Shown in pieces: positions 38,299-59,155 of a stretch of DNA of 64,000 nucleotides. Below the pieces are notes generated by a model. It saw only the letters and a list, made by a program, of their open reading frames with translations. It did not search any database and was not told the origin of the DNA. The stretch lies in NCBI GenBank assembly GCA_000165345.1, contig CM000430.1:160001-224000 (forward strand), in the 5' to 3' direction. The first letter of the stretch is position 1. Each line of letters begins with the position of its first letter. The translations under genes and the position numbers were made by a program.

Positions 38299-39065
38299 TA
38301 CCTACTTTTTTTCTTACTTTATTCACTAAGCCAAGCAATAATTACTTGAGCAGTTTTCATGTATGACTAATTGGCAATTAAGCGCCAAGCAACTTTTTCG
38401 TCTCTAAATTAATATTAGTGAGGGGGAAGCCAATATAATATTAAAGAAAAAATAATCAAAATGTAAATAGATATATATATGAATGACTTGTTTTTGATAT
38501 ATTTTGGGTGAGTATTTAGCTCTGAGCATCAGTGTCCAAATAACTGTTTCCCAATGATACTTTGGGGTCGTTGTTCTTATATAAAATTAAGATTATATCA
38601 TTTGACTCAACGGTAATTATTTTTCTAAAAATAAGTTAGGAAATGAGAATTTAAGTTAAACTTGTGCGTGTGTTCAGTGAATAAACTTACTTTTTTGTTG
38701 TTTCTATAGTTATTGAAATATTCTCACTCAAAATTGAGCTTGATAAAGAACTTCTAATTTGTGTGATAGTAGAACAAAACTCTGAGACTTCATGTTTAAT
38801 ATGTTTAGATCCATATTCTGATTAATATTTAGAGATTATTTACTAGAACAGCAATAAGATTAATATAATTTACCTTGAATTGGTAGGCCTGTTTTTGTAA
38901 AAGATGCCATTCCTATGAATCCTGGTGAATTCTTTAATATCTCATAAGTAGAACTCATTTTATTAAGACTAAAAATATAAATATGCACTAAATTTGAATC
39001 TTAGAAATTTAATTATTTAATTTTTATTACTTTATTCTTGTTTCAATTCAGTCAATTAAATTCGT

Positions 39066-41209: not shown

Positions 41210-43054
41210 TTAGTCCATGTCATCGTTTTGAGAACGGGGCTTTGGACCTCCTGCAGGCTTTGCCATAATGATTTCATCTATTTTAAGAATAGTAACAGCT
41301 GAGTCTGTTGCTAATTTTAAAGCAGAACAAAGAGTGCCCAAATGATCGACAATCAATCCTACTCCCTGCTCATTATTTGAGATACAGTCAATAATTGGAG
41401 AAGTTCCAGAACCACAGAAAACATTTATTCCTTTATGTGGTTGAGAACCTTGTTGATGTATTGCATGTAGTGATGCCAGAAGATCGGTGGAGTTTAGTCC
41501 AGAATTCTCAGCCAATAGTCTTGGGAAAACGTCTAAAGCTTCAGCAAACATATTTACTGCGTACTCCTCCATTCCAGGAACAGGTACATCTACAGAATTT
41601 TGTTGGTATTTGTTTTCAGACTTATCATATGCTCTCAAGCATTTAGAAAGCTCAACAAATGTAGCCCCAGCGCCAGCAACAAATCGATTATCTTTTGTAG
41701 ATGATTTAACAACAGAGACAGAATTCGCAATAGCCCTTTCCATTTCATCCAAAATTCCCTGAGTAGCACCTCTAAGAATAACTGAGCTTACTTTGGTATT
41801 AAGAGCATTAATCACAGTGACCTTCTTCGATCCAATTTCCTCAACCCTGATAGAACTAGCCTTTCCTATTTCTTCTGGAAGAGGAACTCCCAATCTAACC
41901 ATTGCAACAGCTCCAATACTTCGGCAAATGCGCCTCAGTTCCCATTTAGATGTAATTCTTAGAGTTAATATATCGTACTTGTTGCAAAAGTGTTGTGCAA
42001 TATCAGAAATTGGACCGCCTGCGATAATAGCATCGATCTTACCGGTTTGTTTAATATCTTTAATCAAGTTTTCAACCAGAGATTCCTCACCTCTAGTAAA
42101 ATCCAAAAGCTCTTGAGCATTATTTAAAACAACTGTACCTTTCGCCTCTGTTCCAGTCATCTCTAGTCCACATCCTAAAACCATAACATTTGAGACCTTT
42201 TCCAATTTTCTTATTGTACCTCCAGGCTCTCTATTAACCATCATACCATTTATTGTAAATGATTGCATTGGGGATCCTCCCAAAAGCTTAACAATTCTTA
42301 CATTGTCTATATTGAATTCTTTTAATTTATCTTCATCTGGCATTATGCTTGTAATGGCTTCACATGTCAATCTCGTAATTAAATCAGAATATCCTATATT
42401 CTTTGTTGAAACCAAAGGCCTTACAATTCCAGATAAGTCACTAACATTCTTAAAATTAGCAACTCTATGTGCTACCATTCCATTTAGTAAAGATAATGAT
42501 CTTTCTAAGGCTATTTCATATCCTGCTACAATATCTGAAGGATGTAAACCATTATCATTAAGTAGCTTTGCAGCATTTCTTAATAATTCTCCTGCAAATA
42601 TCAAAACTGTATTGCTCGCATCACCGTACTCTTCAGCCTGCCTCTTACATGCCATTACTACCATATTTGCTGCTGGATGCTGGATATCAAGTTCTTCTAT
42701 AATTGTTGACAAGTCACTAGTGATGAACTGTTTTCCAAGATGATTCACAATTAACTTATTCATGCTATTTGGACCATATGATGTTTGAGTCATCTCACTT
42801 AAATTTACGCAAGCCTCAATATTCCTCAATACGGCCTCATCCAGGCCGGAAAATGCCCTGCTTCCATCTTTTAATAAATTTGTAATTCCTGGTCTTAATT
42901 GGAACTAAAAACAATCAGAGGAAATTAATTAATGAAAATAATAATTAAAAAAATTGACCAATAAGTAGCTCAAGCTAAAAAGAATGAAGGCAAATGGGCC
43001 ATATCGCCATGTTCACCTTATTATTGACCAATTTTTATACTCTAAACTTACCAT
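41210..43054 (-). CDS. CCT8: T-complex protein 1 subunit theta (CCT8). The first exon holds only the ATG (43054..43052); a 147-nt intron (42905..43051) precedes exon 2 (42904..41210)
   Basis: Protein co-linear with human CCT8 throughout (NIEACVNLSEMTQTSYGPNSMNKLIVNH..., GGPKP C-tail). The track start at 42829 is TTG and the frame is open upstream to a TTTTAG acceptor (FQLRPGITNLLKDGSRAFSGLDEAVLRNIEAC, matching VPKAPGFAQMLKEGAKHFSGLEEAVYRNIQAC). The in-frame TAG is the acceptor AG. The upstream sequence AAGCAATGGTAAGTTTAG places an ATG directly on a GTAAGT donor. Confidence 0.7.
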
Positions 43055-43250
43055 TGCTTCCTATTCTTTTTTTCTTGGCCAAACAATTTTAAATTAATTG
43101 GTATAATTGACCACACAATACACCCTCTTTCTAAAAAAAAAACAAGAAAAAATGTATTTCCACTTCGCAAACTTCTTCCGGTTCCCCCCTATTTGGCTCA
43201 TTTTCAAGTATGAGACATGATGTCTTTAATGATTATTTGAAGGGCTCTAT

Positions 43251-43259
43251 GTTTCCCGC
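43251..43259. promoter_or_regulatory. E2F core TTTCCCGCC in the divergent CCT8/kinase promoter
   Basis: sequence. Confidence 0.4.
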
Positions 43260-43507
43260 CTATTCTTAAAAAATTATATTAAAAATATACTATGGGGAAA
43301 AAGTTAAGTATTGTGTGGAAAATATGTTTTCTGAGTAAAAATTTGTTGAAATAAAAAAGTGCAATATTTTGACCAAACATTGAAGTTTTGTGATAGTTAT
43401 TGAATAGCTTGGTTGAACACACAATATCGGGCATTTTTGAAGTTCTAATGGTTGATTTTGAAGTAAAATGCTAAATATATTGAAAATATAGGAAAATAAA
43501 TAAGAAA

Positions 43508-44638
43508 ATGAAATTCCCAAATACATTAGAAATTAAGGAAAAGATTTCAAAAAGAGTATTTAATGCAAAATACAAAAGCCAGGACGTTGTGCTTAAATTA
43601 TTTACACCTGACGATTTGGATGGCTGTGCCGCCCAAATAAAACATGTTTTCGATGAGTATGAAGGCACAGATTGTGATTACTTGGAAACATCATTGGATG
43701 ACAGAGTTTTATATTGTATAAATATACATTATTTAATCCAAAGAAAGCTAGGGATATCCATGACATCAGAATATTACCGCAAAGATATGCAGGAATGGGT
43801 TTTTGAAACGATTGTAGATGGTCAAAGAGATTATTTAGAATCATCTCTGTCCGAAGAAAACAGATCTAGAACTAGCAAAGATATGAAAAATTCTTTCATA
43901 CAGCTGATTCATGTTTTTGGTGTGAGATTTGATCAGAAATCTCAAGTTTTTACTTCCCAGGATCAATTTATTGGCCTCATTTTTCCTAAGTTGGGGCAGC
44001 CATTGATGAATTTTGCACAAAACCAAAGATGGGTTCCAAATCCCATTTATCTATCTTCCGTCTTTAGTGATGAATTGTCTATTGCTCATATCTTCAAGGA
44101 TGTTGTAAAATCTGCTTTATTTCTTTTAAGAGAGTTGAATATTGTCCATAAAGATATTAAGATCGAAAATATATGCACTGTATTAGACAACCCAGAATCA
44201 AATAAAATACATCCTATAATAATTGATTTTGGTGAATCTCAGATTCTAAGTAATAATGGAATGCTCAGAGACGCATATGGGACTCATACAATGCTACCTC
44301 CAGAAGCATTTACATATTCATTTTGTTCTCACAATGATGAAAATTATATGGGTTATTCTGCTGAAAAAAGAGAAGTTTGGACTCTCGGCTGTTTATTGCA
44401 TACTCTAGTTTTTGGTTATCCCCCTTATTTTGATATATTCTCAAAAAAATCTCCCATAGAATTTCAGTTGAAACTGTGTGATGAAAGCATTACTATTGAT
44501 ATTCCTACCTACTCAAGTGTGCTAAATGCAGATATCTCACACAATTTGAGAAACCTCCTTAGTAGTATACTAGTCAAAGCCCCTAATAATAGACTTTGTC
44601 TTGAAAATATTTTATTACATCCATGGCTCCAACCCTAG
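43508..44638 (+). CDS. Atypical Ser/Thr protein kinase with a degenerate glycine-rich loop
   Basis: Catalytic loop HKDIKIEN, DFGES, GTHTMLPPE (APE-like) and EVWTLGCLLHTLVFGYPPY (subdomain IX) are present. The N-terminal lobe lacks the GxGxxG loop. Confidence 0.6.
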   Translation: MKFPNTLEIKEKISKRVFNAKYKSQDVVLKLFTPDDLDGCAAQIKHVFDEYEGTDCDYLETSLDDRVLYCINIHYLIQRKLGISMTSEYYRKDMQEWVFETIVDGQRDYLESSLSEENRSRTSKDMKNSFIQLIHVFGVRFDQKSQVFTSQDQFIGLIFPKLGQPLMNFAQNQRWVPNPIYLSSVFSDELSIAHIFKDVVKSALFLLRELNIVHKDIKIENICTVLDNPESNKIHPIIIDFGESQILSNNGMLRDAYGTHTMLPPEAFTYSFCSHNDENYMGYSAEKREVWTLGCLLHTLVFGYPPYFDIFSKKSPIEFQLKLCDESITIDIPTYSSVLNADISHNLRNLLSSILVKAPNNRLCLENILLHPWLQP

Positions 44639-57322: not shown

Positions 57323-59155
57323 ATGGCAGATACTCACTATCCAAATGGAAGCTTTGAAGAATATGAAGAAGAGAGCGTATATGAAATGGATAGATTAAAT
57401 ATTAATGATGAGTATATTGATGAACAAGGCGCAGAACATAATACTTCTGCATGCGCTACTAATTTGGGACTGTATAACTTTGACAGCGAGGATGATGAGA
57501 TATCAAGAGAAATTTATAAAGGATATGGAATAAAAAATGAGACAGATGGCTCAGTTACTGAAACTGAAAGAACAATCCATGAAAATGAAAATGAGAAAGA
57601 AAGTCAATTGAAAACACCACCAAAAAGACCATTTTTAAGGAAGGGAGAAGGTAAGTCCTTGGTAATAAGTAACTCAAGAAAAGCAAATGGAGAATCTATT
57701 TCTAGAAGAAGTTCCCAAATTAGGTCGAACGCAGCAGCCAAGATTGTTCCGAGCTCAGCTCCTTCCAGAAGGTTTATACGTTCAAACAAGTCAGTTGTGC
57801 CAGAAGCAGGTAGAAACAGCAAACTAGACTCGTTATTATTGGGAATTGAAAGCTCAAATTTGACCACCGAGAGTGGGGTGGAAGGATTTGAAATCTTCGA
57901 TGCTGAAGAAGAGTTTCTAGGGATTGACTGGGGCAAAGAACAGAATATTGTCAATGCAAAAAGTAATAGGGATGAGAAAATTAAGGGAAATATTACAGAA
58001 AAGGACCAAGAAAAAGACTATGACAAATTGATTCAACAAAAGTTGGATTTACTTGATGAGAAGATGGAATATATACATGAGACACACGAGGAAATGCTTA
58101 AGAAAAAGACTTTGTTGGCCAGAGAAAGAAAACTTCTTGAAAGCCAAAAAGTGACTTTTGAAAAAGAGTTGAGGGCTAAGTTTGAAAAGAGTAAGCAAGA
58201 AATAGAATCAGAAAAACGACGTTTGGAAAGAGAAAATAACAAGCTAACCAAGGATAAGATTGCCTTGAGCGATCAGGTAACTCGTTTAAAGATGACAATC
58301 AAGGCAAAAGACGCTGAGATCAATCGACTCACTAAAGAAATTACAATGATGGAGAAGAAAGAAAAAGAGAGAGAAAGTATGCAAAATAGAATCCCTATAG
58401 GAAAGAAAGAAAGCTCATCTGAAAGTGTGGAAAAGAAACGAGCTGTTAATCTGAGAGCTAATAATCAGAAAAATGGAGAATTTGAAAGAGCCAGACTTGC
58501 AGGAAACACCGGTATTACTACATTGACTACCAATTTGCAGACGACTACATCAATTTCTTCCAACTCTTCAGGTTCATTTATAGATCGGGATTTAGTTATT
58601 GAAGAACAATTGGCAGCCTTTGACTTTGAAAAGGAATTGGATTTACTATATGGAATCTTAAGTACTTGCTTTGAGTTTGTAAGTGAAGGGGAAGACTTCA
58701 CAACTTTACCAGGTATTCCTGAAGACGTAGGGAGACCATGGTGTGATATTGAAAAGCCGTATAAAGTTCAGAAAGACGACGATTTGAGAACTATTACCTA
58801 TAAGTTCCCTAGTGGACTTGTTGAAATTGTATTTTATGATGAGCAAGAGGATTCTGTTTGTCCAAAAAACACAAGAAAGTTACTTTGGACTCATCTTGGT
58901 TGGTGTATTCTAGTTTATCCAAATGGAGATATTAAAGCAATCAAACCTGACAAAAATATTACTTACCATTATGTTGAAAAAGATATTGTAAAATGCGTAG
59001 TAAGTACTATGGATCTATTGAACTATGATGGAGAAACAACTAAGCTACATTTTAGCAAGTTTTTCTCTCTTGGGCAGTTGCAATGTGTCGATCCTGAGAC
59101 TAGAAAAACATACATAATTCATTCCGATATGTCTAAGCAAATCCTTAATGGTTGA
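57323..59155 (+). CDS. Centriolar SAS-4/CPAP (CENPJ)-like protein, a coiled coil plus a C-terminal TCP10_C G-box domain
   Basis: Central heptad-rich coiled coil (about residues 230-340). The C-terminus has G-box-like repeats (ITYKFPSGLVEIVFYDEQEDSV.., ILVYPNGDIKAIKPDKNITYHYVEKD, LNYDGETTKLHFSKF). Confidence 0.5.
   Translation: MADTHYPNGSFEEYEEESVYEMDRLNINDEYIDEQGAEHNTSACATNLGLYNFDSEDDEISREIYKGYGIKNETDGSVTETERTIHENENEKESQLKTPPKRPFLRKGEGKSLVISNSRKANGESISRRSSQIRSNAAAKIVPSSAPSRRFIRSNKSVVPEAGRNSKLDSLLLGIESSNLTTESGVEGFEIFDAEEEFLGIDWGKEQNIVNAKSNRDEKIKGNITEKDQEKDYDKLIQQKLDLLDEKMEYIHETHEEMLKKKTLLARERKLLESQKVTFEKELRAKFEKSKQEIESEKRRLERENNKLTKDKIALSDQVTRLKMTIKAKDAEINRLTKEITMMEKKEKERESMQNRIPIGKKESSSESVEKKRAVNLRANNQKNGEFERARLAGNTGITTLTTNLQTTTSISSNSSGSFIDRDLVIEEQLAAFDFEKELDLLYGILSTCFEFVSEGEDFTTLPGIPEDVGRPWCDIEKPYKVQKDDDLRTITYKFPSGLVEIVFYDEQEDSVCPKNTRKLLWTHLGWCILVYPNGDIKAIKPDKNITYHYVEKDIVKCVVSTMDLLNYDGETTKLHFSKFFSLGQLQCVDPETRKTYIIHSDMSKQILNG

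Follow-up and report, generated by a model that had tools for sequence, protein, structure and literature searches.

The Cryptosporidium parvum gene for CCT theta very probably opens with a start-codon intron, so that the coding part of its first exon is the ATG alone. In the model we propose, exon 1 would consist of the 5' UTR and this ATG. A U2-type phase-0 intron of 147 nt (ATG/GTAAGT...TTTTAG/TTC, where slashes mark splice sites) would be excised, joining the initiator Met to Phe-2, and the product would be the full-length 565-aa subunit, MFQLRPGITNLLKDGS.... The evidence lies in the anatomy of the sequence, in a spliced product that equals deposited proteins, in the conservation of both splice sites, in coding constraint that begins at the acceptor and in a spliced-type contig from a relative.

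The reading frame encodes full-length CCT theta

We analysed a 64,000-nt stretch of DNA, called the window below, which is AT-rich (GC about 31%). At the 5' end of the CCT-theta gene, a 241-nt comparison of the window with C. parvum chromosome 2 (CP044421.1, CP029781.1) showed 100% identity. CCT theta occupies a single long minus-strand frame, 42904..41210. When searched with the TIGR02346 (CCT theta) profile, this ORF scored 620.9 bits (E = 1.5e-186) against a curated equivalog cutoff of 455.9. Positions 1-530 of the 531 in the profile correspond to residues 6-559 of the ORF read from the acceptor, so the match is full-length and includes the N-terminus. The models of the other seven CCT paralogues gave 163-255 bits, each below its own cutoff, and TIGR02346 was the top match among the eight. 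By score and coverage, the protein is a member of the TIGR02346 equivalog (CCT theta / TCP-1 subunit theta). Its best matches among solved structures are human, bovine and yeast CCT8, and residue 8 of human CCT8 aligns with residue 4 of the ORF. A divergently transcribed protein-kinase gene lies upstream and has its ATG at plus-strand position 43508, and the CCT-theta 5' end must therefore fall within about 600 nt. The features of the gene and its 5' end are as follows.

43111..43120, minus strand: conserved upstream motif TATTGTGTGG, found in six Cryptosporidium species; putative promoter or 5'-UTR element
43055..43138, minus strand: probable 5' UTR part of exon 1; 5' limit inferred; colinear with the leader of contig L006 (see below)
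43052..43054, minus strand: start codon ATG, the only codon in exon 1; aligned with the gene start in CP044421.1
42905..43051, minus strand: phase-0 GT-AG intron of 147 nt; donor GTAAGT 43051-43046, acceptor TTTTAG 42910-42905
41210..42904, minus strand: exon 2, CCT-theta codons 2-565 and the stop codon, by translation of the spliced CDS

A start codon is fused to a canonical donor

On the minus strand, AAGCA is followed by ATG (43054-43052), GTAAGT (43051-43046) and TTTAG. The 3' end of the intron reads GATTGTTTTTAG, with its AG at 42906-42905, and exon 2 opens at 42904 with TTC CAA TTA AGA CCA GGA. Translation of 42907..41210 (minus strand) gives a stop followed by FQLRPGITNLLKDGSRAFSGLDEAVLRNIEAC..., and the acceptor TAG is therefore itself an in-frame stop. 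An initial annotation, made from the sequence alone, had proposed this structure, and its positions for the ATG, the GTAAGT, the TTTTAG and the TTC at 42904 all hold on direct reading. It was also right that the acceptor AG creates the in-frame stop, the codon before TTC being TAG. Likewise, CCT8 homology does run 25 codons upstream of the TTG start at 42829: FQLRPG...DEAV lies between the acceptor TAG and this TTG, as judged by the profile and by alignment to human CCT8.

Within the ORF, an in-frame Met does not come until residue 38 (Met-38, ATG 42793-42791). Read without splicing, the ATG at 43054 encodes only MVSLEYKNWSIIR before a stop. An in-frame TAG lies 3 codons 5' of it, and the gene strand from 43201 to 43054 holds no other ATG upstream of the start codon. 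The initial annotation erred in calling this ATG the nearest upstream initiator. ATGs at 43010 and 43002 are closer; both are inside the intron and run to a stop without reaching an in-phase GT donor.

The intron has a GC content of 28% and ends in TTTTTAG after a T-rich tract. Published means for Cryptosporidium introns are 84-99 nt and 22% GC (PMC4637869), and GTAAGT starts 84% of them (PMC2483917). The donor, the YAG acceptor and the short AT-rich sequence all fit, and the CCT-theta intron is a canonical U2-type GT-AG intron. A search for branch points found only TTAAT-type candidates in the C. parvum intron, and ACTAAC near the 3' end in C. bovis and C. ryanae. According to the literature, a clear branch-point consensus is absent from C. 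parvum (PMC2483917).

We then asked how often such a junction arises by chance. ATGGTAAGT occurs twice in 128 kb (both strands), with 0.63 expected, and its expectation in the 603-nt gene-strand stretch just 5' of the ORF is about 0.003. The intergenic region has no GTAAGT on its gene strand other than the one at 43051. Within these 603 nt there are seven candidate phase-0 ATG...GT first exons that could splice to 42904, and the ATG-only exon is the one that uses GTAAGT. The second ATGGTAAGT (58961-58969, minus strand) has no acceptor with a long ORF after it and is apparently a chance match that falls in coding sequence or antisense to it. A scan of the window for ATGGTA(A/T)G with a YAG and an ORF of at least 120 codons returned CCT theta only, with no further start-codon intron. 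Searching 42700-43600 against Rfam for RNAs hosted in the intron, snoRNAs for instance, returned no matches at E <= 1.

Further introns are annotated in a neighbouring 106-aa gene (38516-38958, minus strand). They span 38873-38818 (56 nt) and 38690-38625 (66 nt), and the spliced CDS is a clean 106 aa. The CCT-theta donor 9-mer, GTAAGTTTA, is identical to the second donor in this gene.

The spliced product matches current public annotation

Joining ATG 43054-43052 to 42904, as the initial annotation had suggested, yields 565 aa that equal QOY43143.1 (CPATCC_000856; P0121) residue for residue. The same C. parvum sequence is also deposited as WKS76385.1 and WRK30878.1. The gene in the IOWA-ATCC assembly (GCA_015245375.1, CP044421.1) is 1845 nt long, which is 3 + 147 + 1695, and its first base aligns to window position 43054, so the annotated span matches exactly. 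Between CPATCC_000856 and the window there is no detectable difference: the DNA is identical over the region compared, and the 565-aa product, the 1845-nt span and the start ATG are the same. Models of 565 aa beginning MFQLRPG are also present in C. hominis (CUV04446.1, OLQ19233.1), C. meleagridis, C. canis, C. ubiquitum and chipmunk genotype I.

GCA_015245375.1 is the IOWA-ATCC assembly of Baptista et al. 2022, who describe its annotation as manually curated, with RNA-seq backing for 100% of introns (PMC8744675). From this published annotation and its authors' RNA-seq statement, we infer that C. parvum itself splices the transcript at exactly these sites. An earlier RNA-seq re-annotation had raised the share of intron-containing C. 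parvum genes from 4.3% to 10.8% (Isaza 2015, PMC4637869). If ATG/TTC splicing is true, the predicted N-terminal peptides include (Ac-)MFQLRPGITNLLK and FQLRPGITNLLK.

Other records differ at the 5' end. C. parvum Iowa II XP_626322.1 is a 564-aa 'partial' protein whose first residue is Phe, C. hominis TU502 XP_668422.1 has 527 aa and begins at Met-38, and C. tyzzeri TRY53001.1 (528 aa) is truncated at Met-38. The remark in the initial annotation that such an exon is easily missed by gene finders is borne out by the early models, Iowa II (564 aa) and TU502 (527 aa), but these have since been corrected and the observation is not new. A CCT-theta gene model with the start-codon intron is already public, and the structure is of a known, ordinary kind. 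Its biological weight is accordingly small, and its annotation value modest: the 5' end is wrong in C. hominis TU502, C. tyzzeri and C. felis, and probably in C. andersoni. The Iowa II record remains 'partial' at this end, and Eimeria records are possibly affected too.

Both splice sites are conserved in six Cryptosporidium species

The initial annotation had named comparison with orthologous gene models as a check. We set the C. parvum locus beside its orthologues in C. meleagridis, C. felis, C. bovis, C. ryanae and C. andersoni. All six species have ATG/GTAAGTT, an intron of 119-147 nt and a YAG acceptor, followed by TT(C/T) CA(A/G), which encodes Phe-Gln. The comparison thus favours the model, with donor and acceptor conserved throughout the six and the intron position found in Toxoplasma gondii and Vitrella as well (see below). 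Between C. parvum and each of C. felis, C. bovis, C. ryanae and C. andersoni, the intron interiors are 28-36% identical, which equals alignment background. Over the first 150 nt of exon 2, the identity to the same four distant species is 77-87%.

Differences in the codons between the acceptor and Met-38 fall mostly at third positions. Relative to C. parvum, these 37 codons carry 14 synonymous and 0 non-synonymous differences in C. felis, 16 and 3 in C. bovis, and 17 and 5 in C. andersoni. Change is mostly synonymous, and the segment is therefore translated, which argues strongly against a start at an internal Met or in an unspliced frame.

Two deposited models depart from this structure. In C. 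felis (JABXOJ010000013.1, L005 1832-2003), the deposited model has 555 aa and a CTG start inside exon 2. The C. felis locus itself holds ATG at 1832-1834 fused to GTAAGT and a 139-nt intron ending TTCAG/TTCCAA, and this arrangement gives a 565-aa MFQLRPG protein.

The deposited C. andersoni model (LRBS01000069.1, L004 2001-2228) has coding exons of 7 nt and 8 nt and the acceptor TTTCAG/. We could reproduce it exactly as ATGTGTG, a 75-nt intron, GTCAAATG, a 138-nt intron and GTAAGACC (MCGQM/VRPGV). It uses the same donor as the other species, and its two added upstream micro-exons turn the conserved ATG into an internal Met. When the C. andersoni ATG-only exon is spliced to TAG/TTTCAG instead, the protein begins MFQVRPGV, in line with all other species. 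Judging from sequence, the deposited 5' end is probably a gene-finder artefact, and MFQVRPGV is the more plausible N-terminus. We also considered the tandem acceptor TTTCAG/ of this model, 6 nt downstream, for the other species. C. parvum and C. felis cannot use it, since they have TTCCAA there, and it is unused in contig L006, whose mRNA-type sequence keeps TTTCAG.

A contig from a relative resembles the spliced mRNA

Logan contig L006 (SRR26126320), of 1896 nt, has gene-sized ends, the ORF being flanked by only about 100 nt on each side. It encodes a CCT theta 87-88% identical to C. bovis-clade proteins. Its 97-nt 5' UTR is colinear with the genome directly upstream of ATG/GTAAGT in C. ryanae and C. 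bovis. This leader begins about 20 nt 5' of a TGTGTGG motif, contains no upstream ATG and has an in-frame stop 13 codons 5' of the ATG. In L006 the ATG is contiguous with TTTCAGCTAAGACCG (TTTCAG), with no intron between them. The contig looks like a spliced mRNA from a relative in the C. bovis clade in which the TAG/ acceptor was used. Alternatively, the CCT-theta gene itself might be intronless in the species from which L006 came. A degenerate spliced-junction pattern (ATGTTYCARYTRAGRCC...) had 0 matches in JGI metagenome contigs.

Other starts are improbable

If no splicing took place, translation could start at Met-38 (42793-42791) and give a 527-aa protein without the N-terminal 37 residues, as in the deposited XP_668422.1 and TRY53001.1. 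We regard this as very improbable, because those 37 codons are under clear purifying selection (14 synonymous and no non-synonymous differences in C. felis), align to the conserved CCT-theta N-terminus from profile position 1, and lie downstream of an ATG/GTAAGT donor conserved in six species. The unspliced ORF could also be initiated at a non-AUG codon, for example TTG 42829 or a near-cognate codon close to the TAG. Such starts do appear, TTG in the mechanical ORF list and CTG in the C. felis GenBank model, but they are artefacts that arise when ORFs are called in bacterial style or models are truncated. The coding constraint reaches as far as the acceptor, where the TAG closes the frame, and an AUG with its donor is perfectly conserved upstream in every species compared. 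We give non-AUG initiation next to no credence.

A different or additional upstream coding exon might instead be spliced in, leaving ATG 43054 internal or unused. The C. andersoni annotated model is of this type, and the C. parvum intergenic region offers six other phase-0 ATG...GT candidates. However, their donors (GTGTGT, GTATAT, GTGTAT, GTGGTC, GTCAAT) are weak and the encoded peptides are not conserved. In C. parvum the TAG 3 codons before the ATG closes the frame, and the L006 5' UTR, with an in-frame stop of its own, runs colinear with the genome. Moreover, the first C. andersoni 'exon' sits in a conserved non-coding motif that reads ATTGTGTGG, without an ATG, in the five other species. 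An upstream coding exon therefore has only a very slim chance of being correct, and the ATG-only first exon is the reading we retain.

Motifs upstream of the gene and within the intron

In each of the six Cryptosporidium species, the motif TATTGTGTGG lies 62-86 nt 5' of the CCT-theta ATG, in surroundings that have otherwise diverged. A second copy faces the kinase gene in the opposite orientation, 138-190 nt from the kinase ATG, in C. parvum, C. meleagridis and C. felis. Motif positions in the window are 43111-43120 (minus), 43309-43318 (plus) and 43418-43426 (minus), and the window holds 3 copies of TTGTGTGG, where 1.1 would be expected. TATTGTGTGG is a possible promoter or initiator element of a bidirectional intergenic region. 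An E2F-like GGCGGGAAA is located at 43252-43260 (minus), in the middle of the region between CCT theta and the kinase gene, and is identical in C. meleagridis. In C. felis only GCGGGAA is left of it, again about 200 nt from the ATG. We did not find GGCGGGAAA in the C. bovis, C. ryanae or C. andersoni loci.

Inside the intron, a near-palindromic CCAAT-like 10-mer, ATTGGTCAAT, occurs twice (42953-42962 and 43023-43032), and a related copy at 43102-43113 abuts the upstream TGTGTGG motif. Both intronic copies are kept in C. meleagridis, a species too close for this to be informative, and they cannot be aligned in the distant species. One could speculate that this is an ancestral intron which selection has preserved in the intron-depleted Cryptosporidium genome for its contribution to expression, either through intron-mediated enhancement or through ATTGGTCAAT and TATTGTGTGG acting as a transcriptional signal. 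We consider this unlikely.

The intron position is probably ancestral

In the annotated T. gondii CCT theta (L009 601-1245), the ATG is fused to GTGAGA, and a 639-nt phase-0 intron ends in TTGCAG before a Phe codon. The chromerid Vitrella brassicaformis has the same arrangement in its annotated gene (L010 601-810), with ATG/GTAAGC, a 204-nt phase-0 intron and TTGCAG before a Phe codon. These two genes have a longer start-codon intron and many further introns, whereas Cryptosporidium CCT theta retains this one only. Theileria equi and Perkinsus chesapeaki CCT theta, in contrast, read ATGTTC uninterrupted and lack the start-codon intron. N-termini beginning 'MF...' are general in alveolate CCT theta, transcriptome-derived sequences included.

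The intron position is probably ancestral to apicomplexans and chromerids and was retained in the intron-poor Cryptosporidium genome. Its presence in T. gondii and Vitrella and absence from Theileria equi and Perkinsus suggest an ancestral intron with lineage-specific loss. A position common to Cryptosporidium, Toxoplasma and Vitrella is a small data point on the retention of ancient introns in intron-poor parasites.

Eimeria CCT-theta models are heterogeneous at the N-terminus. Several (P0025, P0028, P0035, P0044, P0046) carry assorted, unrelated extensions before FAARHGL, and others start MFAARHGL. This heterogeneity may come from the same start-codon intron being mis-modelled.

Finally, the initial annotation regarded a 3-nt coding first exon as unusual. 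That view does not fit the survey of Nielsen and Wernersson (2006, BMC Genomics 7:256, PMC1626468), which found an excess of phase-0 introns directly behind the start codon in vertebrates, arthropods, fungi and plants; in eukaryotes such an exon is not unusual. The proteins of this class are mainly short, conserved and lysine-rich, ribosomal proteins being an example (PMC1626468). CCT theta resembles the class in having a phase-0 intron after the ATG, a conserved protein, no signal peptide and an intron position kept in orthologues. It differs in the kind of protein encoded: the class is enriched in short lysine-rich proteins, whereas CCT theta is a 565-aa chaperonin subunit.
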